This document shows positions 3,888-16,543 of a stretch of DNA of 32,000 bases, piece after piece. The translations under genes were made by a program, and so were the position numbers. Position 1 is the stretch's first letter. Every line of letters starts with the position of its first letter. This DNA is from an uncultured Methanoregula sp. (GTDB lineage Archaea; Halobacteriota; Methanomicrobia; Methanomicrobiales; Methanospirillaceae). The notes under the pieces are model-generated. The model worked only from the letters and a program-made list of their open reading frames with translations, had not been told where the DNA came from and did no database searches. Where the stretch lies: the NCBI GenBank assembly GCA_963667735.1, contig OY763919.1, positions 1,209,539-1,241,538 on the forward strand, in the 5' to 3' direction.

Positions 3888-4835
3888 TCAGAAGAATTTC
3901 TTTCGCCACATGAAAAGGCCGAGGATTATTGAGCACATGAAGGATATGCCAAAGATGATCTCGAATGCCAAAGGCTTCTGCGAGAGCGGGATGTCCACGA
4001 CGTTCATCCCGTAAAAACTCGCAATCATCGTCGGGATGGCGATGATGATCGTGATGGAGGCGAGGAACTTCATCACGATATTGAGGTTGTTGGAGATGAT
4101 CGTGGCAAACGCGCCGGTCATGCCGTTCAAGATGTGCAGGTAGATCTGGGACATCTCCATGGCCTGCTTGTTCTCGATGATGACGTCTTCGAGGAACTCG
4201 GCATCGTCGTCGTACATCTTCAGCGGCTTGGTTCTCAGGATCCGCTCCAGGACCGCCTCGTTCGACTTGAGCGATGTCGAGAAGTAGATGAGGCTCTTTT
4301 CCAGTTCCATCATCCGGAAGAGCTCCTCGTTCTTCATTGAACGGTGCAGTTCCACTTCTATCCGGGAGATCGTCTTCTCAATCTGCCGCAGGTGCTGCAG
4401 GTACGAGGAAGCGTTCCGGTAGAAGATCTGGAAGATGAACCGGGTCTTCTTGGCTGTATGGAAATGACGGACCTTCCCTGCGGTGAAATCGTCCAGGATG
4501 GGGGACTGGCTGTTGCAGACCGTGACTACCAGGGTATCGGTGATGATGATGCCGAGCGGGAGGGTGGAGAGCGTTCGTATCCCCTCGTTGTCGGTGATCA
4601 TCGGTACATCGAGGACAACGAGAACCACGCCGTCTTCGGAATCGATGCGCGGACGCTCCTCTTCATCGAGGGCAGCTTTTAAGAATTCCGGCGGGAGGTG
4701 GCAGGTTTCGGCTATATGGGCAAGTTCGGCTTCGGTCGGGCTCGTCAGCCGTACCCAGGTGCCATCGCCCGGTGTGTCCACGGTCTCGATGATTGCCGGT
4801 TCTGTGTCTTTTTTTGTCCTGTAGATCTGCATCAT
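3888..4835 (-). CDS. corA: CorA-family Mg2+/Co2+ transporter
   Basis: The C-terminal signature is FYGMNV (GMN motif) between two TM helices, preceded by a long cytoplasmic domain. I prefer ATG 4835 (MMQIYRT), which is preceded by gggagga, over the GTG at 4871 used by the ORF track. Confidence 0.85.
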   Translation of the reverse strand: MMQIYRTKKDTEPAIIETVDTPGDGTWVRLTSPTEAELAHIAETCHLPPEFLKAALDEEERPRIDSEDGVVLVVLDVPMITDNEGIRTLSTLPLGIIITDTLVVTVCNSQSPILDDFTAGKVRHFHTAKKTRFIFQIFYRNASSYLQHLRQIEKTISRIEVELHRSMKNEELFRMMELEKSLIYFSTSLKSNEAVLERILRTKPLKMYDDDAEFLEDVIIENKQAMEMSQIYLHILNGMTGAFATIISNNLNIVMKFLASITIIIAIPTMIASFYGMNVVDIPLSQKPLAFEIIFGISFMCSIILGLFMWRKKFF

Positions 4836-5192
4836 GACCCGGGTCCTCCCGATAATCCCGAGGTTCCCCACCGGTTTGTTTCACGGGGCGGGGGAACCTT
4901 CGGATGTACTTCCATCCCATGGCTGCGTTCCCCGCCCGCCAGTAGCGATCTTTTGCATCGCACGCCGGTCGTGGAACAACCTGTTGCTGATGGAGGAATT
5001 GGCGCTGGATATATTTTGTTCAATCGGTTTATGCTTTTTCCGGCTTTCGTGAGTGCCGCAATTTTGCCTGAATAGCAATTTCACACACAATAATAAGGTA
5101 TTTATTGAATTCTCTCTCAAAATATCCGTATTTTTCCCATTTATGGCTATATATATCTCTGATGCCCCAAAAAAGGCGAAAAAGAAGAAATC

Positions 5193-5202
5193 ATTATAAA
5201 TA
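5193..5202 (+). promoter_or_regulatory. Candidate TATA box for the NRAMP-like operon
   Basis: The sequence attataaata lies in the AT-rich divergent intergenic region, about 125 nt upstream of ATG 5327. This implies a leader of about 100 nt. A second TATA-like tract, ggctatatatatc, sits around 5143-5158. Confidence 0.3.
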
Positions 5203-5326
5203 CCTGGGGTATATTGATATGCAGGACGTCATTATCCGTGACAGGGCACCGGCATGCCCGTCATCTGCGGTGAATGGGGGCTGAATAACCGGCTATGTAA
5301 CAATATACTATCTGGGGCGTGACTGC

Positions 5327-6595
5327 ATGGATCTCGGATCAACCTTTTTTTATAAATACCAGCGATTTATCAAGACCCTGAAAATTTACCTGCTCATCGC
5401 CGGGCCGGGTCTCATCGTCATGCTCGCGGACAACGATGCCGGGGGCATCACCACCTACACCGTAACCGGTGCGAAATTCGGGTACGGGCTCATCTGGTTC
5501 TTGCTCCTCCTCCTGCCCGTTGCGTACGTTGTACAGGAGATGACCGTGCGCCTCGGGGCAGTCACAAAACGGGGCCATGCAGAGGCGATCTTCGATGCGT
5601 TCGGCTCGTTCTGGGGCTGGTTCTCGTTCCTCGACCTGGCTCTCGTGAACTGGCTGACGCTGGTGACGGAATTTATCGGGATGACCGCAGCGCTCGCCAT
5701 CTTCGGCATCGATCCGGTGATCACGGTCGTTATCGTATCCATTGTCATGATGCTGATGGTGCTGCAGGGGAAGTACTGGACCTGGGAGAAGATCGCCATG
5801 CTCTTTGCCGCCCTCAATATCGTTTACATTCCGGCGGCATTCATGGTGCACCCCTCGGTGGGCCAGGTCCTGGCGCAGGGTCTCATCCCCCATTTCCCCG
5901 GGGGATTCAACGGGACGTTGTTCTTCTTCTTAATGGCCAATATCGGTACAACGATCGCCCCCTGGATGATCTTCTTCCAGCAGAGCGCGGTGGTTGATAA
6001 GGGGATGAAGGAGAAAGATATCCCCTGGGGTCAGATGGACACTCTCATCGGATCGGCATTCACCGTTCTCGTGGCAATATTCCTGGTCGTCGTGACCGGC
6101 ACCGTGCTCTATGGTTCGGAAGTCGAGAGTGCCGCCCAGGCAGCGAGCGTGCTCATGACCACCAATCCCTGGCTCGGGACCTTCATTGCGATCGGTCTCT
6201 TCAATGCCGGGTTCCTCGGGGCGATCTGCATCTCCCTTGCAAGCTCGTGGGCGTTTGGCGAGGTATTCGGCTGGGCCCATTCGCTGAACCTGAAGATCCG
6301 CGAGGCCCCGTGGTTTTACTTATGCTACCTCTTTGCGCTCGTGAGCGCCGGTGCGGTCGTGCTGATACCCAATGCCCCGCTAGTTCTCATCACCCTGTTC
6401 GTCCAGGTCATCGCCGTGACCCTGCTGCCTGCGGCCCTGGTCTTTCTGATCCTGCTCTTGAACAACGAGGAGATCATGGGCAAATACAAAAACAATCTCT
6501 GGCAGAACATTGCCGGCACAACCATCGTTGTCGCGATCATTGTCCTCTCCACCCTGTATGGCATCACGACCCTCTTCCCGGGGCTGATCTCATGA
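5327..6595 (+). CDS. NRAMP (SLC11) family transporter with an NRMT-like (Mg2+-type) metal-site signature
   Basis: The 422-aa protein is polytopic. TM1 reads ...MLADNDAGGITTYT where canonical Nramp has DPGN. TM6 reads IGTTIAPWMIFFQQS where canonical Nramp has GA.IMPHN. Confidence 0.85.
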   Translation: MDLGSTFFYKYQRFIKTLKIYLLIAGPGLIVMLADNDAGGITTYTVTGAKFGYGLIWFLLLLLPVAYVVQEMTVRLGAVTKRGHAEAIFDAFGSFWGWFSFLDLALVNWLTLVTEFIGMTAALAIFGIDPVITVVIVSIVMMLMVLQGKYWTWEKIAMLFAALNIVYIPAAFMVHPSVGQVLAQGLIPHFPGGFNGTLFFFLMANIGTTIAPWMIFFQQSAVVDKGMKEKDIPWGQMDTLIGSAFTVLVAIFLVVVTGTVLYGSEVESAAQAASVLMTTNPWLGTFIAIGLFNAGFLGAICISLASSWAFGEVFGWAHSLNLKIREAPWFYLCYLFALVSAGAVVLIPNAPLVLITLFVQVIAVTLLPAALVFLILLLNNEEIMGKYKNNLWQNIAGTTIVVAIIVLSTLYGITTLFPGLIS

Positions 6596-6617
6596 CGGGC
6601 CGGATGGGGGTGCAGGT

Positions 6618-6821
6618 ATGGTAACGCTCGAAACGGTCTTTGGCCTCAGGATCGGGAGCATGATCCAGGGGGGGATAGACAAGATCCACGAGATCAACAA
6701 AAAATACAAGACGCCCCGGATCAAAATGTCCCGCGGAGTCAAACTCGCGCTCCTGTTCCTGCGGCTCTACCTGATCCTGCTTGTACTGCTGCTTGGCTAT
6801 AAATTCTGGACATTGCTGTAA
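6618..6821 (+). CDS. Small membrane protein (67 aa, single C-terminal TM helix), co-operonic
   Basis: ATG 6618 is preceded by gggggtgcagg (SD-like) and lies 22 nt after the NRAMP stop. The C-terminal helix is LALLFLRLYLILLVLLLGY. The next gene starts 12 nt after its stop. Confidence 0.5.
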   Translation: MVTLETVFGLRIGSMIQGGIDKIHEINKKYKTPRIKMSRGVKLALLFLRLYLILLVLLLGYKFWTLL

Positions 6822-6833
6822 AGGGAGGGAATC

Positions 6834-8123
6834 ATGCAGACGGATGGTACGCAATCAGGGAAAAGTGCCCAAAACCCGGGCACGGAATATCTCATGAGCA
6901 CGCTTATCGGGGGAAAGGTCTTCCGGGGCTCAAAGAAGATCGGCAGGCTTTCCGATCTGATGATCATCGAGACCGGAAAACTTCCGGAAGTCAAAAACCT
7001 GGTGATCACCCGCCCGTTCGGGGACCCGGCGCTTCTCGTTCCCTGGGACCGGGTGAAGAGCTTTGAACCGGGACGCTGTGCGATCGAGCTGGAGGATCTT
7101 AAAAAATACGAGGCTGAACCCCCGGAGGACGCGATCCTTCTCTTCGACCATATCCTCAACAAGAAAGTGCTCGACATGGAAGATGCCGAAGTCGAGGTTG
7201 TGTACGATATCCATCTCGTCAACCGGAACGGCCGGCTGTATGTGACGGAAGTCGATACCTCCAAGTCGGCCCGCCTCCGCCGCCTCGGGCTGGGTTTCCT
7301 GTCCGGCGTCCTGTACCCGCACGAGGACCCCAAGGACCCCGGCGTGATCTCCTGGCTGTATATCCAGCCCCTTCCCCCCCAGATCAGCAGTTTCCGGGGG
7401 GATGTCAAGCTCAATATCTTAAAAGACAAACTGGCGGAGATCCACCCGGTGGATCTCGCCGATATCCTGGAAGAGCTCGACCATGACCAGCGCGTGATGG
7501 TCTTCTCGTCGCTCGATCAGGAGCAGGCATCGGATACCCTCGAAGAGATAGAACCCCAGGTCCAGCGCGACATCATCTCGTCCCTGACCACCGAGCAGGT
7601 AGTGCGGCTCCTCAACGACATGACCCCCGGCCAGGCTGCCGATATCTTATCGGTGCTCCCGTCATCGGAAGCCCAGGAGATCCTCGAAGCCCTGAGTAAG
7701 GACACTGCCAGGAAGATCCAGGCGATCATCGGGAAACAGGAAGAGAAAGTCATCCACTATACCACGCAGAAGATCCTGAAATTCCCCCCGGAGACGACTG
7801 CCGGTTATATCGAGAACGATTACCCCCGGCATGCTCGTGGGAAAGACGTCATCATGTACATCTATGTTACCGGCACGGATGACACCCTGCTTGGCGTCAT
7901 CGATCTCAAGGATCTCCTCCAGGCCGACGATCAGGCATTGCTCAGGGACATCATGCTCGAGAATGTGATCAGCCTGTCAACGGAGAGCACGCTCAAGGAA
8001 GCATCCCAGCTCTTTGCCCGGTATGATTTCCGCGCCCTGCCCGTTGTCGATGACAAAAATCGCCTGACCGGTGTGATCCCGTACCGCGATGTGATGAACC
8101 TCACCCACCATTTCGTGGAATAA
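6834..8123 (+). CDS. Soluble PRC-barrel + MgtE N-domain + CBS-pair protein (MgtE cytoplasmic Mg2+-sensor module without the membrane pore)
   Basis: ATG 6834 is preceded by agggaggg. The N-terminus is PRC-barrel-like (LIGGKVFRGSKKIGRLSDLMI...). The MgtE_N-like helical repeat is HPVDLADILEELDHDQRVMVFSSLDQEQASDTLEEIEP...AADILSVLPSSEAQEILEAL. The C-terminus is a CBS pair (...LLGVIDLKDLL... / ...ALPVVDDKNRLTGVIPYRDVM). No TM segments follow. Confidence 0.85.
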   Translation: MQTDGTQSGKSAQNPGTEYLMSTLIGGKVFRGSKKIGRLSDLMIIETGKLPEVKNLVITRPFGDPALLVPWDRVKSFEPGRCAIELEDLKKYEAEPPEDAILLFDHILNKKVLDMEDAEVEVVYDIHLVNRNGRLYVTEVDTSKSARLRRLGLGFLSGVLYPHEDPKDPGVISWLYIQPLPPQISSFRGDVKLNILKDKLAEIHPVDLADILEELDHDQRVMVFSSLDQEQASDTLEEIEPQVQRDIISSLTTEQVVRLLNDMTPGQAADILSVLPSSEAQEILEALSKDTARKIQAIIGKQEEKVIHYTTQKILKFPPETTAGYIENDYPRHARGKDVIMYIYVTGTDDTLLGVIDLKDLLQADDQALLRDIMLENVISLSTESTLKEASQLFARYDFRALPVVDDKNRLTGVIPYRDVMNLTHHFVE

Positions 8124-8161
8124 AAAAAATAAAATCTTCGGGGAAGATCCCCCGGATCCCC

Positions 8162-8416
8162 TTATTTTTCCTGCCACATCAGCCAGACTGCATAGAGCAT
8201 GGATAAGCACGCGGCAAGGAAGATGACGGCGTGGAGGCCCGGCAGAATGTTCAGGGCAAGGATACGGTCGATATCGAAGATGACGAACAAGGCAAACGTG
8301 ATGGCAATAAACCCGCCGTACATCTTCTTTCTCTTCCATGCAACGAGCAGGGCGAGTATGGCTACCGCCAGTTCGGTAATGATTGCGATTACCTGGATAA
8401 CGTCGGATATCTGCAT
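8162..8416 (-). CDS. Small hypothetical membrane protein (84 aa, ~3 TM)
   Basis: The ORF has an ATG start and is uniformly hydrophobic (VIAIITELAVAILALLVAW..., GGFIAITFALFVIF..., HAVIFLAACLSMLYAVWLMW). It lies immediately downstream of the ancestral msrA terminator. Confidence 0.5.
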   Translation of the reverse strand: MQISDVIQVIAIITELAVAILALLVAWKRKKMYGGFIAITFALFVIFDIDRILALNILPGLHAVIFLAACLSMLYAVWLMWQEK

Positions 8417-8453
8417 ATGTTCACGTTTCTTTTGGTTCTGGATTAAGTATTGT

Positions 8454-8475
8454 AAAAAAACCTGCGGACTGCAGG
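8454..8475 (-). terminator. Hairpin + T7 terminator belonging to the displaced (ancestral) msrA 3' end
   Basis: On the minus strand the TGA at 8479-8477 is followed by the stem cctgc/gcagg (8475-8461, 5-nt loop) and then TTTTTTT (8460-8454). Confidence 0.5.
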
Positions 8476-8476
8476 A

Positions 8477-8587
8477 TCAGATGTGACAGGTTCCGCCGTG
8501 TTTCTCGAAATACTGCTGGTGGTACTCCTCGGCCCGGTAGAAGACCCCGGCCGGCTGGATGATCGTTACGATCTTGCCAAACCCGAA
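8477..8587 (-). pseudogene. msrA: Displaced 3' fragment of msrA (last 36 codons + stop), orphaned by the islet insertion
   Basis: The minus-strand translation is [36 protein letters not shown]. This parallels the end of the intact gene at 10494-10607 ([37 protein letters not shown]). There is no upstream coding continuation, and similarity stops abruptly at 8587. Confidence 0.85.
8493..8587. repeat. Left 95-bp direct repeat (attL-like) flanking the islet
   Basis: The sequence is ccgccgtgtttctcgaaatactgctggtggtactcctcggcccggtagaagaCcccggcCggctggatgatCgttacgatcttgccaaacccgaa. It differs from 10513-10607 at 3 positions, all C/T transitions. Confidence 0.9.
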
Positions 8588-8610
8588 ATCATCGGACAAC
8601 TAATAAGAAA

Positions 8611-8620
8611 TTATATATAA
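8611..8620 (+). promoter_or_regulatory. Islet-borne TATA box for the SLATT-TIR operon
   Basis: The sequence ttatatataa lies ~45 nt upstream of ATG 8663, immediately inside the islet boundary. A second TATA-like tract, tctataatataa, sits at ~8636-8647. Confidence 0.4.
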
Positions 8621-8662
8621 TTTTACCTATTGTCTATCTATAATATAATCTTCTCCGGATTT

Positions 8663-9130
8663 ATGCCTCCTTCTGAGAACCCGACCGTTGAGAGACTTGA
8701 AGCGCAGTTGAGGTATTACAGCCAGAGCAGTCGGAAAAACCGGCTCTGGTACAAGTGGCTCAAAGTTGCAGAAATTATTGCGGCGGCTGCAATTCCTCTG
8801 GTTGTTGTGATATTTCCAACACCCAAATGCTCAGATCCGCCGGTTACCGCTGCATTCATCGCTGCCCTGTTGGGGATGCTGATTGTCATACTCGAAGGGT
8901 TCCAGGGTCTCAACCAGTACCAGCACAACTGGATTACCTTCCGCAGCACGGCAGAAGACCTGAAACATGAGAAATATCTCTGGCTTGCAAAGGCGGGACC
9001 GTATGCGAATACTGCCAATCCCGATACACTCCTTGCAGAGCGTATTGAATCCCTGATCTCGCGGGAACACTCTAAATGGATTTCATCCCGTGAACGGGAA
9101 CCGAAGAACAATTCGGAAAGTGAAAAATAA
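8663..9130 (+). CDS. SLATT / DUF4231-family 2-TM protein (predicted membrane effector)
   Basis: The DUF4231 hallmark order is present. The N-terminal helix is RLEAQLRYYSQSSRKNRLWYKWLKVAEII. The two TM helices are AAAAIPLVVVIF and VTAAFIAALLGMLIVILEGF. These are followed by QHNWITFRSTAEDLKHEKYLWLAKAGPY. I prefer ATG 8663, because the track start at 8630 is a TTG. Confidence 0.8.
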   Translation: MPPSENPTVERLEAQLRYYSQSSRKNRLWYKWLKVAEIIAAAAIPLVVVIFPTPKCSDPPVTAAFIAALLGMLIVILEGFQGLNQYQHNWITFRSTAEDLKHEKYLWLAKAGPYANTANPDTLLAERIESLISREHSKWISSREREPKNNSESEK

Positions 9131-9140
9131 GGAGTGGATT

Positions 9141-10385
9141 GTGAGCCCGGATGTTTTCATCAGTTATGCTTCAGAGGATAGAGAGATCGGGCTATCTATC
9201 TGTAATGGTCTTGAGGATGAGGGCATTTCCTGCTGGATCGCACCCCGAGATATTCTTCCCGGCATGGTCTATGCAGAAGCGATAATCAAAGGGATCGATT
9301 CAGCAAAAGTGCTCGTTCTGGTATTTTCCTCTCACGCCAATGCATCTCCCCATATCATCCGCGAAGTGGAACGGGCCGTGCACAATAATGCAATTATCAT
9401 TCCTGTGAAACTTGAGAAGATTGATCCTTCCCCGGCTCTTCAGTATTATATTAGTGCTCCCCAGTGGATTGATGCAACTGGAGGAATATTAGAATCTCAT
9501 ATTAATCAACTCGTGGAGACCTTGAAAAAACACTTGTCTCTGGAATGTGTACATGAGCTTAAGGTTAATTCTTTAGAAGATGTCTCACAACAAAATGGTC
9601 CACTGAATCCATCCCCCGGTATTAGTCGCTCATTTTTTCGATGGAGTGTGTTGAATTTTAAAAAAATATTGATAATAATCGTTTTGCTTCTTTTTATCGC
9701 AAGTATTTCAACATATATTGTTGTTTTTCGAGATGGCGATAGTAAAAGTGCATTTATAATTGGCGATCCATATGTGGGGTATTATAGTAAGTCCTCCCCC
9801 GTTTTCACCTCCACTATGCCTAACTGGAGTGGATATATGGAAAATTATCCTCATAATAGTTTTATCGGTAAAGGCGATTTATCTCAACAAAATTCACGCA
9901 ATTTCCTTATAATTGAGTTCCCCGTCCATTTTCTATTACCCGCAAACGATGTTAGCTTTAATTATACTTGTATCGGTGATGATGGTGATTACGCCACTCC
10001 AGTTCCACCACCACATGATCAATGGGGGTATACACATAATCCCGAATTTAGTGTTGCTGTGACGAACGTGACAAATTGGTGGGGTGACTGGGTTGATGAT
10101 TCGAGTGGAGAGCGTACAAATTACAATAAAACAAATATTTTTTTAGTATCGTATTTTGATAAAACTTCTTTTGGGTCAAACAAATCGGGTTCTGAACCGA
10201 TTTTTACAAGTGGCCTCTCTCGTGGATCTCATATTCAAACAATTGGACAAGGAGATATTATGTTAAATATGGAAATTTTCTCTCTCGGTAATGGATATCA
10301 TAAATATACTTGTACGTATATTGTCACATCGAAAGAGCCCAAATGGACTCAGCAAAAAACGATAATTTTAAGCCATTATGATTGA
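9141..10385 (+). CDS. TIR-domain protein with a single TM helix and an orphan C-terminal extracytoplasmic domain
   Basis: The N-terminal TIR (TIR_2-like) domain reads DVFISYASEDREIGLSICNGLEDEGISCWIAPRDILPG...VLVLVFSSHANASPHIIREVERA, with a putative catalytic Glu codon at 9363-9365. The TM helix is ILIIIVLLLFIASISTYIVVF (about 9666-9728). It is followed by ~215 aa with no family I recognise and five NxS/T sequons. The likely start is GTG 9141, 6 nt after aaggag and 10 nt after the SLATT stop. The ORF track begins at an upstream GTG (9090) that overlaps the SLATT gene. Confidence 0.8.
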   Translation: MSPDVFISYASEDREIGLSICNGLEDEGISCWIAPRDILPGMVYAEAIIKGIDSAKVLVLVFSSHANASPHIIREVERAVHNNAIIIPVKLEKIDPSPALQYYISAPQWIDATGGILESHINQLVETLKKHLSLECVHELKVNSLEDVSQQNGPLNPSPGISRSFFRWSVLNFKKILIIIVLLLFIASISTYIVVFRDGDSKSAFIIGDPYVGYYSKSSPVFTSTMPNWSGYMENYPHNSFIGKGDLSQQNSRNFLIIEFPVHFLLPANDVSFNYTCIGDDGDYATPVPPPHDQWGYTHNPEFSVAVTNVTNWWGDWVDDSSGERTNYNKTNIFLVSYFDKTSFGSNKSGSEPIFTSGLSRGSHIQTIGQGDIMLNMEIFSLGNGYHKYTCTYIVTSKEPKWTQQKTIILSHYD

Positions 10386-10493
10386 AAATCGGATTTAATC
10401 TGAATTTGGAAAATGATGTCTCCATTTTTAAGGCAAATGTGATTCACATAATCTACCGTCCTCTTTTTTCTGCCGCGCTGTACGTGGGGACTA

Positions 10494-10985
10494 TTATCTG
10501 GTATGGCATTGCCCGCCGTGTTTCTCGAAATACTGCTGGTGGTACTCCTCGGCCCGGTAGAAGATCCCGGCTGGCTGGATGATTGTTACGATCTTGCCAA
10601 ACCCGAACCGGCCGGAAACCTCCTGCTCCAGCTTCGATGCCCGTGCCTGTTTCGCCTGGTCAGGATCATGGTAAAAGATCACCGACCGGTAGTTTGACCC
10701 GATATCCGGTCCCTGCCGGTTGAGCTGCGTGGGGTCGTGGATCGACCAGAACACCTCAAGCAACTCTTCATACCCGACCCGCGATGGATCGTAGGTTACC
10801 TGCACAACCTCTGCATGCCCGGTCTCGCCTGTGCAGACCTGTTCGTACGTGGGATTTTTGGTAAAGCCTCCCATGTACCCCACTGCTGTGCCAGAAACTC
10901 CGTCAAGCTTCCGGAACGCTGCCTCAACGCCCCAGAAACAGCCGGCCCCGAACGTGGCTGTTCTTCCTGTGCCGTCTTCTGCCAT
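10494..10985 (-). CDS. msrA: Peptide-methionine (S)-S-oxide reductase MsrA
   Basis: The active-site motif is [12 protein letters not shown], and the product has MsrA-like length. The preferred start is ATG 10985 (MAEDG...), preceded by caggagtggatt. The last ~38 codons lie in or beyond the right direct repeat. Confidence 0.9.
10513..10607. repeat. Right 95-bp direct repeat (attR-like), part of the intact msrA
   Basis: It is 92/95 identical to 8493-8587. In the msrA frame, two of the three differences are synonymous and one is a V/I change. Confidence 0.9.
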
Positions 10986-11052
10986 AATCCACTCCTGTAT
11001 GATCATGGAACCCGGGAACAATAAGATTCTCCGATCTCAGGAACGCATCACG

Positions 11053-11059
11053 TATATAA
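11053..11059 (+). promoter_or_regulatory. Candidate TATA box for pspC-like gene (short or no leader)
   Basis: The sequence tatataa is centred ~27 nt upstream of ATG 11082, in the msrA/pspC divergent intergenic region. Confidence 0.35.
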
Positions 11060-11081
11060 TGGCAACAACCCCAGTTTATTC

Positions 11082-11297
11082 ATGAAACAACTGACCCGGC
11101 CAGAGAACGGCCGTATGATCGGGGGGGTCTGCGCGGGGATCGGTCAGCACCTGGATGTCGACCCGACCGTTATACGGATAATCTGGGTTGCCTTGACCCT
11201 CCTCTCCCTCGGTACCGGCATCATCGTCTATATCATTGCCTGGATTCTCATCCCCGAAGCTCCCCGGGATCCTCCGGCTTCCCTGTCACCCCCATAA
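11082..11297 (+). CDS. PspC-domain membrane protein
   Basis: The sequence RPENGRMIGGVCAGIGQHLDVDPTVIRIIWVAL is followed by a TM helix (GIIVYIIAWILIP). This is the classic PspC-domain pattern. Confidence 0.75.
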   Translation: MKQLTRPENGRMIGGVCAGIGQHLDVDPTVIRIIWVALTLLSLGTGIIVYIIAWILIPEAPRDPPASLSPP

Positions 11298-11353
11298 CCG
11301 TACCGGACTAACAATTCATCAGGGACAACGACAAACCTGTAGGCAGGCAATTG

Positions 11354-12460
11354 ATGAAGATCCTTTTTGTAGTCTGCGGTGAGGGACTCGGGCATGCATC
11401 CCGCTGTCTCCATCTCGGGCATTACATGCAGCAGCAGGGCCACACCATCCACTACGCCGGGTACGGCAAATCCTATGATTTCATGCAGCAGCACGGGTGC
11501 CAGATGCTGCATAAGATCCCCCGCGAGGTTTGCCTTGAGGGGGAGGGAGGCTTCTTCGACCTGAAAAAGACCCTCTGGTGTTCCAAGTCGGTGGCCCTCG
11601 ACCTGCTCAAATCCGCAGCAGCCGTGCGCCGTCTCCTCCATGACAACGAGTTCGACTGCGTTGTCTGCGATACCATGTACGGGGGACTGTTCTCAGCCTG
11701 GGCCCGCAGGATCCCGAGGGTTTTCATCACCAACCAGAACCATTTCAATGGCCATGCCGGCAAGACCAACCCGGTCTGGCACCTCCTCAACCTCTTAATC
11801 CGGCGCTACATCGGCTTTTTTTCCCCCCACATCATCGTCCCCGATTACCCGTCCCCGGATACGGTGAGCGAATACAACCTTGTCATGCCCTATCGCTCGA
11901 AACCCCGGTATTATTTTACCGGCCCGTTCTACGAGTTCGACCCCACCAAGTACGTGTACGACAAGAAGACCATCTTCACCAGTTTCGGGGGGGAACCCTA
12001 CAAGCTCCCGATGTACCTGATGCTCAAGGCGATAGCCGACCAGCACAAGGAAGAGTTCTTCGATGTCTTTTATACCGGCCCGCAGATCCCGGAATCCTCG
12101 GACAACTTCGCCTCCCACGGGTACGTCCCCAACCTCTACGAGCACCTTGCGCTGGCAAAGATTGCGATCGTCCACGGGGGCCTCACTACCCTCCACGAAG
12201 CCCTGCTCTTCGAGAAACCCGTGCTCATCATCATGGACCCGAACCACCCCGAGCAGCAGAACAATGCCAAGAAGATAGTTGACATGGGTGCAGGGATCGC
12301 CATCGACGGCAGGGATGTGACCAAAGAGGTGCTTGAGGAGAAGATCGCCGAGACGCTCCTCCTGACCCCCCGGCCGTTCCAGGCCAAGCATGCGGAGATC
12401 AACGGGCGGAAGGCGGCCTCGGATATCATCCTTGGCCTCTGCAAACGCCGGCAGCCTTAA
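11354..12460 (+). CDS. GT-B glycosyltransferase (MurG/GT28-like, MJ1255-type)
   Basis: The N-terminus is MKILFVVCGEGLGHASRCLHLG (the G-rich loop of MurG-like GTs). The C-terminal half contains ...VHGGLTTLHEALLFEKPVLII... The true start is ATG 11354, because 11351 is a TTG. Confidence 0.75.
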   Translation: MKILFVVCGEGLGHASRCLHLGHYMQQQGHTIHYAGYGKSYDFMQQHGCQMLHKIPREVCLEGEGGFFDLKKTLWCSKSVALDLLKSAAAVRRLLHDNEFDCVVCDTMYGGLFSAWARRIPRVFITNQNHFNGHAGKTNPVWHLLNLLIRRYIGFFSPHIIVPDYPSPDTVSEYNLVMPYRSKPRYYFTGPFYEFDPTKYVYDKKTIFTSFGGEPYKLPMYLMLKAIADQHKEEFFDVFYTGPQIPESSDNFASHGYVPNLYEHLALAKIAIVHGGLTTLHEALLFEKPVLIIMDPNHPEQQNNAKKIVDMGAGIAIDGRDVTKEVLEEKIAETLLLTPRPFQAKHAEINGRKAASDIILGLCKRRQP

Positions 12461-12493
12461 GTAACGGGAGAAAAAAGATCCTTTCAGGATACG

Positions 12494-12766
12494 ATGAGCA
12501 TGGAAAAGAACGGGGAAATATCCCACCTCAAGGTTACGGAAGAGCTGCATACCTGCCCCTCCTGCGGGTACGACAAGGGTTTCCATACCTCGTTCCTGAA
12601 CGTGAACTCCTCTGACAATCCGGTCAAGTCCACCCGGGAGGTCTTCCGGGTGATCCTCATCTGCCCGGAGTGCGGCGCCCGCTATGATGTCGGGTGGCGG
12701 GTCTCGTTCGTTGAGCCCGAGAGCCGGTTTACGAAAACCATTGTCCTGCCTCCCCCCAGCTCATGA
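12494..12766 (+). CDS. Small zinc-ribbon protein (hypothetical)
   Basis: The 90-aa protein has CPSCGYDKG...CPECGARYD (CxxC x ~40 CxxC). Its codon composition matches neighbouring genes. Confidence 0.5.
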   Translation: MSMEKNGEISHLKVTEELHTCPSCGYDKGFHTSFLNVNSSDNPVKSTREVFRVILICPECGARYDVGWRVSFVEPESRFTKTIVLPPPSS

Positions 12767-15754: not shown

Positions 15755-16543
15755 TCAAAACCGGAGACACTGGGGATGAGCAGCCGAGGTCCCGTCCTGG
15801 GTGGCGACCGTTACCCGGTGTTCCTCGAAAAAGAGGCCGAGGCCCTCCCGGGCACTCCCTTTTGCTTTCTCGGGGGTATTGTTCATCTCGCTCAGGTGGG
15901 CGAGGATGACTTCGGGCACGTCTTTTCCGAACTCCCGCAGGCAGAGGGCGGCGTCCGGGTTGGAGAGATGGCCGCGTTTTGATCGGATCCGGCGTTTGAG
16001 GGATTCGGGATAGGGGCCGTTTGCAAGCATCTCGGGACAATGGTTGCTCTCAAGAATGATCCCGTCGCAGGGCAGGAGCAGATCCAGCATCTGCGGGGTG
16101 ACAATACCGGTATCCGTGCAGTACCCGATCCGGCAGTCGCCCTCCCGGATGATGAACCCGCACGGTTCGGCTGCATCGTGGGAGATGGCAAACGGCTCGA
16201 TTGTGAAATCCCCGACTGTGAACTCTTCGCGGTACCGGCACACCCGACTCTCCAGGGGTTTTTCGGAAGTCCGGCGGTGATTGAGGAAATCGGCCAGCGT
16301 CCCTTCCGTTGCATAGACCGGCAGATCCAGTTTCCGGCAGAGGACGTCCAGGCCCCGGATATGGTCCCCGTGCTCGTGGGTGACAAGAATGGAGAGCAGC
16401 TGTTCCGGGTCGAGCCCGGCCCGGGCCATGCGGAGAAGCAGTTCCTTTGCACTCAGGCCAGCGTCGATGAGGATGCTCCCGGAGGATCCTTCAAGGACAA
16501 CCGAATTTCCCTTGCTCCCGCTTGCAAGAACAATGCAGCGCAT
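15755..16543 (-). CDS. MBL-fold metallo-hydrolase
   Basis: The N-terminus LASGSKGNSVVLEGSSGSILIDAG and the HxHxDH motif (THEHGDHIRG) are present. A later His and AHLS occur near the C-terminus. Confidence 0.85.
   Translation of the reverse strand: MRCIVLASGSKGNSVVLEGSSGSILIDAGLSAKELLLRMARAGLDPEQLLSILVTHEHGDHIRGLDVLCRKLDLPVYATEGTLADFLNHRRTSEKPLESRVCRYREEFTVGDFTIEPFAISHDAAEPCGFIIREGDCRIGYCTDTGIVTPQMLDLLLPCDGIILESNHCPEMLANGPYPESLKRRIRSKRGHLSNPDAALCLREFGKDVPEVILAHLSEMNNTPEKAKGSAREGLGLFFEEHRVTVATQDGTSAAHPQCLRF

Follow-up and report, generated by a model that had tools for sequence, protein, structure and literature searches.

Integrase-Less Insertions at Gene 3′ Ends

Hardly anything passes from genome to genome as quickly as defense systems do, and the vehicles that carry them in archaea, notably in methanogens, are poorly known. 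Here, we describe a locus at the 3′ end of the msrA gene in a 32,000-nucleotide stretch of DNA from an uncultured Methanoregula sp. (contig OY763919.1, positions 1,209,539 to 1,241,538; hereafter, the window), where a cassette of about 1.9 kb, encoding a SLATT protein and a TIR protein, lies between two direct repeats of the msrA end. The closest described elements are the cis-mobilizable elements (CIMEs), i.e., remnants from integrative and conjugative elements (ICEs) or integrative and mobilizable elements (IMEs) which lack an integrase and are flanked by attachment (att) sites (PMC5704250, PMC6323972). Like the msrA cassette, CIMEs hold their cargo between direct repeats containing the 3′ end of a protein gene, and the genes for integration and transfer are absent. 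They differ from it in that msrA in these archaea has no known cognate integrase element, and in that one boundary and the repeat length vary here. To our knowledge, ICE or IME conjugative systems of the CIME type have not been described in archaea.

Elements that insert at gene 3′ ends and bring a replacement end are well known, for instance, the proviruses and plasmids that integrate into tRNA genes, or ICESt1 and ICESt3 in fda. As in our case, an element-borne end keeps the target intact, and the native one comes to lie on the far side; the msrA cassette, however, has no integrase, measures 1.9 kb with two genes, and is flanked by a near-identical 95-nt repeat, itself bordered by diverged homology, that exceeds typical att cores in length. 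A second comparison is the pop-in used in archaeal genetics, in which a non-replicating circular DNA is inserted by a single homologous crossover. It predicts this kind of product: a host duplication would flank the insert, as is seen here, the inner ends would derive from the incoming DNA, and the insert could be lost by recombination between the repeats; the differences are that the present event would be a natural one, that its arm is very short (about 125 nt), and that it would have been kept long enough for the ends to diverge. Defense hotspots flanked by core genes offer a third one, since a small module with a hypervariable sensor domain is likewise present, absent, or swapped at one spot among strains of 97–99% identity. 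The cargo of such hotspots is normally bounded by intact core genes, whereas here a gene end is duplicated.

The cargo itself has a described counterpart. The pair of a TIR and a SLATT protein has been validated as type VII Thoeris, in which, as the preprint outlines it, the TIR protein (ThsB) produces canonical cyclic ADP-ribose and the SLATT protein (ThsH) is a membrane effector (bioRxiv 10.64898/2025.12.03.692087, December 2025). As far as the preprint's outline of the system goes, both cases have a TIR gene beside a gene for a SLATT/DUF4231 protein with two transmembrane helices, and a location in strain-variable DNA. Set against the same outline, the present pair, likened to it by gene content, differs by its archaeal host, by having SLATT before TIR, and by a TIR protein with a membrane helix and a hypervariable orphan C-terminal domain that has a single known homologue. 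Thus, the att-flanked islet, the defense hotspot, and the Thoeris-like pair are all known; the archaeal setting, the host-homology arm of variable length without an integrase, and the predicted membrane-anchored TIR protein with a swapped orphan outer domain are new.

Insertion of the Cassette into the 3′ End of msrA

The features of the msrA side of the locus are as follows.

8162..8416, minus strand: p84, an 84-aa small membrane protein, the conserved downstream neighbor of msrA in Methanoregula, which marks the ancestral site; it has no Pfam match
8454..8475, minus strand: native msrA terminator, a hairpin with a 5-bp stem followed by T7 (terminator scan), contiguous with msrA in the empty-site relatives and now apart from the intact gene
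8477..8599, minus strand: displaced native msrA 3′ end, a 40-aa open reading frame (ORF) containing the left repeat, 8493-8587 (PMSR, repeat, alignments of relatives)
10494..10512, minus strand: insert-side replacement msrA end (Q-C-H-T-R-stop), of a diverged msrA homologue (codon-by-codon comparison with the native end and the relatives)
10494..10985, minus strand: intact msrA (163 aa), in which the host body is joined to insert-borne last codons (PMSR; annotated as WP_319377494.1, P0249 of the cluster table)
10513..10607, minus strand: right direct repeat, within the intact msrA (sequence, repeat search)

The two core repeats (8493-8587 and 10513-10607), which had been recognized in a sequence-only reading of the window, are identical at 92 of 95 positions when read directly; a repeat search extends them to 112 nt (8476-8587 versus 10496-10607) at 90% and detects no other repeat above 27 nt in 7000-12500. 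Pfam PMSR confirms that each of the two copies is an msrA 3′ end, encoded on the minus strand, and also that the left one lacks a gene body: its 40-aa ORF matches only profile positions 121-149, while the ORF at 10494..10985 contains the full domain (E-value 1e-63, positions 1-150 of 153). An exact look-up of the latter's 163-aa product gave no entry, although the cluster table lists it as P0249. The left copy ends in GGTCHI-stop and is followed, on the same minus strand, by the hairpin CCTGCAGTCCGCAGG and its T7 at 8475-8454. The right copy, on the intact gene, ends in GGQCHTR-stop, and comparison of its codons with the native end bears out that this C-terminus comes from the islet side.

Relatives were gathered by exact-protein look-ups and from msrA homologues, and their msrA loci were viewed with 6–10 kb of flank. 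The states of the site are listed below, with nucleotide identities to the window measured on the right flank.

L001/L002/L164 (one JGI contig), 98.1%: cassette present, in another context
L171 (sister sample of the L002 contig): empty site
L172, 96.7%: empty site
L166, 92.3%: msrA, then the terminator; the contig stops 51 nt past the stop codon, short of p84
L170, 87.0%: empty site
L167, 80.2%: empty site; L168 and L169 have the same layout
L004, 70.4%: empty site; L005 has the same layout

The native run from msrA through the terminator to p84 is found in nine loci (L002, L171, L172, L167, L168, L169, L170, L004, and L005), three of which are at 97–99% DNA identity; in L002, it is present alongside the cassette. 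Since these relatives hold msrA and p84 uninterrupted, their adjacency is ancestral, and since the left copy is contiguous with msrA in all of them, it is the displaced native tail of the gene. The empty sites that the sequence-only reading had predicted therefore exist in related Methanoregula, and no longer conserved gene includes the left copy. We conclude that the cassette is a real and recent insertion into the msrA 3′ end.

Across the searched collections, the cassette occurs in two genomes only, which belong to one species. The proposed search for it on plasmids and viruses gave nothing: BLASTN gave no cassette match among plasmids and phages, and IMG/VR did not return it when queried by the SLATT protein, the TIR protein, or the exact junction 31-mer. 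Among JGI metagenomes queried with the SLATT protein, the best match reached 61% amino-acid identity, and matches were never beside msrA.

Could the arrangement be a misjoin of two strains, or of a chromosome and an extrachromosomal element? The sequences are metagenome-derived, the repeat is longer than the k-mer, and L002 has a scaffold gap at the repeat, all of which would favor such an artifact. An independent Logan unitig (L003, from run ERR12015701) nevertheless matches 8537-10542 base for base, which shows that more than a single assembly has this arrangement. Both junctions (8587/8588 and 10512/10513) recur in this unitig, the left one also in the JGI contig; the repeat copies differ by three single-nucleotide polymorphisms (SNPs) and by their ends, hence they are not one collapsed sequence; and the window is part of a 2.89-Mb contig. 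We therefore regard an assembly artifact as highly improbable.

Run ERR12015701 (L003, L165, and L168) contains, besides the cassette unitig of the window, a p90/Nre fragment identical to the window and another Methanoregula species, with an msrA at 86%, whose site is empty. Relatives with and without the cassette thus share one community.

The Replacement Tail and the Composition of the Insert

The native msrA end reads, on the sense strand, CAC GGC GGA ACC TGT CAC ATC TGA, and the end of the intact msrA in the window reads CAC GGC GGG CAA TGC CAT ACC AGA TAA. The replacement preserves the frame, the Gly-Gly, and the Cys-His, in agreement with the GGxCH motif that is general among msrA homologues. 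About half of the 19 nt that follow CACGGCGG differ from the native end, directly beside 53 identical bases. This sharp step in divergence marks a recombination boundary, as opposed to decay in place. The claim that the insert supplies a replacement 3′ end keeping its target intact consequently holds, and the codons indicate that the insert side brought a diverged msrA tail, not random DNA, which fits a Campbell-type insertion. Neither the QCHTR ending nor the SDDF of the SLATT-side inner end was found in any of 120 msrA homologues; some of these end in GGHCHT-stop, two substitutions off QCHTR.

On the other hand, the repeats themselves tell little about the incoming copy. Their three differences, at 8546, 8553, and 8565, are indeed one V/I and two synonymous changes, as previously read. 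The alleles at these sites are A,A,A in the window, A,G,G in L002, and G,A,G in L171, and G,G,G in the fragments and in more distant relatives. The SNPs are thus polymorphic among intact host msrA alleles and carry little information on the incoming DNA, so that they lend little to the derivation from a functional msrA homologue that had been argued from them. For the same reason, a crossover between 8553 and 8565, which we considered from the repeat SNPs, was dropped, L171 and L172 showing all three sites to be polymorphic in intact host alleles.

The insert between the repeats comprises the following features.

8588..8662, plus strand: very AT-rich upstream region (GC 0.24), with TATA-like runs TTATATATAA at 8612-8621 and TATAATATAA at 8640-8649, identical in L002; a putative promoter region
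8663..9130, plus strand: DUF4231/SLATT protein, 155 aa (Pfam DUF4231 1e-24, SLATT_1 5e-9, SLATT_3 3e-7)
9141..9478, plus strand: TIR domain, residues 1-113 of the TIR protein, a conserved module common with L002 (Pfam TIR_2 3e-22)
9479..10385, plus strand: variable module of the TIR protein, i.e., linker, one predicted transmembrane helix, and 220-aa orphan C-terminal domain (hydropathy; about 30% identity to TIR_B, the TIR protein of L002)
10386..10493, plus strand: 3′ untranslated region of the cassette, with a T6 run at 10464-10469 (sequence)

This DNA of about 1.9 kb is AT-rich and compositionally foreign. Beyond the upstream region, its GC content is 0.50 in the SLATT gene, 0.47 in the TIR domain, 0.36 in the C-terminal part of the TIR gene, and 0.39 in the 3′ untranslated region, against 0.56-0.59 in the flanks, and its GC at third codon positions is 0.28-0.54 (0.28 in the variable module) against 0.69-0.80. 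Both profiles agree with the earlier statement that the insert is far more AT-rich than its surroundings.

The Cassette in a Sister Strain

The second occurrence, in L002, has another organization. In window orientation, the order is CorA, the 3′ half of a p84 copy (b), a gap of 63 N, an msrA fragment, SLATT, TIR_B, 141 nt of AT-rich DNA, a second p84 copy (a), the terminator, and an intact native msrA. Between the window and L002, 8502-9208 shows no mismatch over 707 nt, a tract that takes in the junction of the msrA fragment with the insert, the putative promoter region, all of SLATT, and 68 nt at the start of the TIR gene; six mismatches appear when the comparison is extended to 8502-9478, all of them at position 9209 or beyond. 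With a genome background divergence of about 2%, about 14 mismatches would be expected in 707 nt. Hence, this half of the cassette is younger than the split of the two strains. Past residue 113, the TIR proteins drop from 100% to about 30% identity while keeping their architecture, an exchange of the outer domain as a module. No similarity was detected between the 3′ untranslated regions of the two cassettes, their local alignment being no better than shuffles.

The boundaries behave differently on the two sides. On the SLATT side, they are identical in both strains. On the TIR side, the junction lies 1 nt past the p84 stop codon in L002 and at the msrA stop in the window. The duplication accordingly includes p84, the terminator, and the msrA tail in L002, up to 433 nt, against 95–112 nt in the window. 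Within one species, three states therefore coexist: an empty site, cassette A at msrA, and cassette B in a longer duplication. This makes the locus a clean natural example, in which the empty site, the msrA cassette, and a second duplication that holds the identical half of the cassette can be compared, and it complicates a model with a single att site.

L171 has the empty order msrA-terminator-p84-CorA, with L002-like sequence and a (b)-type p84 end. We considered that its p84 might be an a/b hybrid left by excision, and rejected this, the differences being private SNPs of the two L002 copies. Similarly, the idea that the second L002 p84 copy is DNA from a divergent donor, joined by homology-facilitated illegitimate recombination, was weakened by three L002-specific SNPs that it shares with the other copy; we keep it only within the linear-fragment scenario discussed below.

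How Was the Cassette Inserted?

We searched the locus for mobility functions. By Pfam, the insert and all large ORFs of the 32-kb window are free of integrase, transposase, and replication domains, as the sequence-only reading had stated for the insert, and no recombinase was found within 10 kb in L001/L002. No terminal inverted repeats pair the insert ends. The absence of inverted repeats and of a transposase, together with a duplication of 95 nt and diverged inner ends, sets the cassette apart from insertion sequences, miniature inverted-repeat transposable elements, and transposons. Its repeats contain the target's 3′ end, as left and right att sites (attL and attR) do, and the cassette lacks both the recombinase of its own and the identical boundaries in separate occurrences that an integrase-driven element would have. 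The direct host duplication around the insert and the empty site in relatives, expected of a Campbell-type event, are both present.

We favor the following course of events. A single Campbell-type crossover would have taken place between the host msrA 3′ end and an msrA-3′ segment of the incoming DNA, duplicating about 95–112 nt. It would have left the native tail, the terminator, and p84 on one side and joined the msrA body to the insert-borne tail GGQCHTR-stop on the other, a fusion through which msrA stays intact. Host homologous recombination of the RadA type, and not a site-specific integrase, would drive both this insertion and the later reshuffling, and the cassette would spread among close strains by recombination in or beside the arm homologous to the host. 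The sequence-only reading had likewise proposed a Campbell-type integration: the insertion, the duplication, the empty sites, and the replacement tail all stand, while we only infer the circular intermediate and the dependence on host recombination. That host homologous recombination moved a cassette devoid of recombinase is a proposal to which we give about half of our confidence. It is favored because no recombinase is present, because the two strains differ in repeat length and in one boundary, because the exchanged tract amounts to little more than the cassette and its arm, and because other marks of recombination surround the locus.

Several points weigh against this proposal. A circular form or an excision junction has not been observed. 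The window version offers only 95–125 nt of homology, little for homologous recombination to work efficiently in archaea, and the three SNPs of the repeats, varying as they do among host alleles, cannot place the crossover. The homology of the SLATT-side inner end is weak (SDDF versus SGRF), only TCCG being common beyond the repeat. The left junction of L002 falls within the 63-N scaffold gap, so that the longer duplication there is part sequenced, and with two cassette-bearing genomes known, the history is under-determined. Moreover, a replacement tail ending exactly at the stop codon is a hallmark of integrase-driven elements; a tyrosine recombinase is found 1.8 kb away from a related SLATT-TIR pair (L158); and an integrase that acts in trans could be encoded elsewhere in the 2.89-Mb genome.

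These last points lead to a first alternative, i.e., that a larger element, bearing a tyrosine integrase that targets the msrA 3′ end, integrated and provided the replacement tail, then shed this integrase along with other genes and left its cargo between attL and attR, in the manner of a CIME, the remnant being either immobile or moved in trans by a related integrase. Direct repeats of a protein-gene 3′ end with a target-preserving tail are indeed what site-specific integration gives in the textbook case, both strains have the same SLATT-side boundary, the integrase near the L158 pair is of the PF00589 family, and direct repeats also bracket another related cluster (L088). However, an integrase is missing from the 32-kb window and from the 10 kb around the L002 cassette, and a search around the L158 integrase gave no att repeats. 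Within the 6–10 kb of flank viewed, integrase-bearing elements are absent from the msrA end of L004-L007, L019, L022, and L166-L172, and a second duplicated msrA tail was found in none of 80 msrA loci. The TIR-side boundary and the repeat length also differ between the two occurrences, and the plasmid, phage, and viral-contig collections gave no match. We consider this origin rather unlikely, if by no means negligible.

A second alternative dispenses with any autonomous unit. One old event, illegitimate or integrase-driven, would have been followed by double crossovers of linear fragments through msrA, p84, and CorA, and the L002 arrangement would stem from occasional homology-facilitated illegitimate joins. 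The region is prone to recombination, with an NRAMP/MgtE_N block and a Kup gene that vary by strain and with LamG genes that fill the same gap elsewhere; CorA identity decays toward the locus; the TIR gene is mosaic; and the cassette is seen in one species only. Yet a double crossover in the flanks should copy the same arrangement, whereas the two strains differ in position and in the extent of the repeat. The perfect identity over 707 nt also stops near the cassette on its left, within 8312-8501, which indicates that little besides the cassette and its arm was exchanged, as opposed to long flanks. Finally, the diverged replacement tail is left unexplained. In our judgment, this scenario is unlikely.

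If host recombination alone moves the cassette, as we favor, a short core-gene end suffices to mobilize a defense module within a species, which, if true, bears on how archaeal pan-immune systems are shared. More speculatively, the locus might represent a class of recombinase-free, "homology-addressed" archaeal defense islets coupled with a surface-sensing TIR protein. Such islets would use a copy of the target 3′ end as an address label and pop in and out by host recombination, swapping their sensor module; the TIR protein, with a topology like that of Toll-like receptors (ectodomain, one helix, cytoplasmic TIR), would signal to a SLATT pore as an envelope-sensing Thoeris variant. Taken jointly, these two proposals are improbable enough that we offer them as a conjecture.

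A SLATT-TIR Pair as Cargo

The sequence-only reading had named no cargo in the 1.9 kb. Pfam reveals a pair of defense type, SLATT/DUF4231 and TIR, the 414-aa TIR gene (9141-10385, plus strand) following the SLATT gene on the same strand after 10 nt. The SLATT protein, 100% identical in L002, has two hydrophobic helices by hydropathy (about residues 31-50 and 57-78) and is predicted, by analogy, to be a ThsH-like membrane-disrupting effector. Residues 1-113 of the TIR protein are those of P0001 save for the start codon (M versus V). In a phmmer alignment with the TIR-STING chain 6wt6_A, E75 (HIIRE) stands opposite the E of SKFE and is a candidate catalytic residue. A strongly hydrophobic helix, preceded by R/K residues, spans about residues 172-195. 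The 220-aa C-terminal domain contains five N-X-S/T sequons, and is probably extracellular. It has one real homologue among 1.84 billion representative proteins, and AlphaFold2 run on a two-sequence alignment gives a predicted local distance difference test score below 50 across residues 181-414.

A SLATT gene followed by a TIR gene was also found in 20 of the 80 metagenomic loci retrieved with the SLATT protein. PADLOC v2 contains no model matching the SLATT protein and gives the TIR protein weak PDC-S66/ThsB-like matches only, its database (PADLOC-DB v2, 2023) being older than the type VII Thoeris preprint. The cargo thus resembles type VII Thoeris on paper, and by analogy we infer a defense function: the TIR domain would produce a signal derived from nicotinamide adenine dinucleotide, and the SLATT protein would respond by permeabilizing the membrane. 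It would thereby extend the TIR and SLATT configuration to archaea, and the membrane anchor of the TIR protein predicts sensing at the cell surface.

Two related loci show other surroundings. In L088 (7767-11888), beside hypD, a SLATT gene is accompanied by two tandem genes of the TIR-linker-helix-variable domain type, whose N-terminal regions are 84% identical in DNA. On both sides of this cluster stands a direct repeat whose 42-nt core is 88% identical (7767-7808 and 11847-11888), which suggests that repeat-flanked insertion is not confined to the msrA case. In L158 (7989-12482), the related pair (50–57% identity) lies beside an archaeal flagellin gene and the tyrosine recombinase mentioned above; neither flanking att repeats nor a tRNA gene was found there.

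The Surrounding Variable Region

The other side of p84 is variable as well. A block of 3.3 kb (4836-8154), with NRAMP (5327-6595) and MgtE_N/CBS (6834-8123), separates p84 from CorA (3888-4871) in the window. It is also found in L167, with an extra Kup gene, and is missing from L001/L002, L170, L171, and L172, in which p84 abuts CorA. Toward this block, the CorA identity between the window and L001 declines from about 98% to 92%, 89%, and 82%. The presence or absence of the block and the decay in CorA indicate a second indel and recombination boundary adjoining the cassette.

The gap between msrA and p84 has other occupants elsewhere. In L019 (6522-7796) and L022 (6480-7787), it holds a gene for a protein of 424–435 aa with a hydrophobic N-terminal helix and Laminin_G_3, and in L005 (6576-7104), p84 is tandemly duplicated. 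These contents show that the gap 3′ of msrA is a recurrent site of gene gain.

Another variable spot lies between the GATase and 2-hydroxyacid dehydrogenase genes (387-587 in the window, 16951-18818 in L001, and 13663-14249 in L172). The window has almost nothing there; L172 has two other small ORFs; and L001 has about 1.9 kb of extra DNA with a 334-aa HSDR_N gene (type I restriction N-terminal-like) and a 90-nt duplicated segment. Finally, a conserved 262-aa gene with a metallo-beta-lactamase fold is located at 15755-16543 on the minus strand, and its orthologues carry the precomputed Pfam match Anti-Pycsar_Apyc1 (PF23023). Since every relative carries the gene, its product is probably not an anti-defense protein but a housekeeping hydrolase of cyclic nucleotides or RNA.

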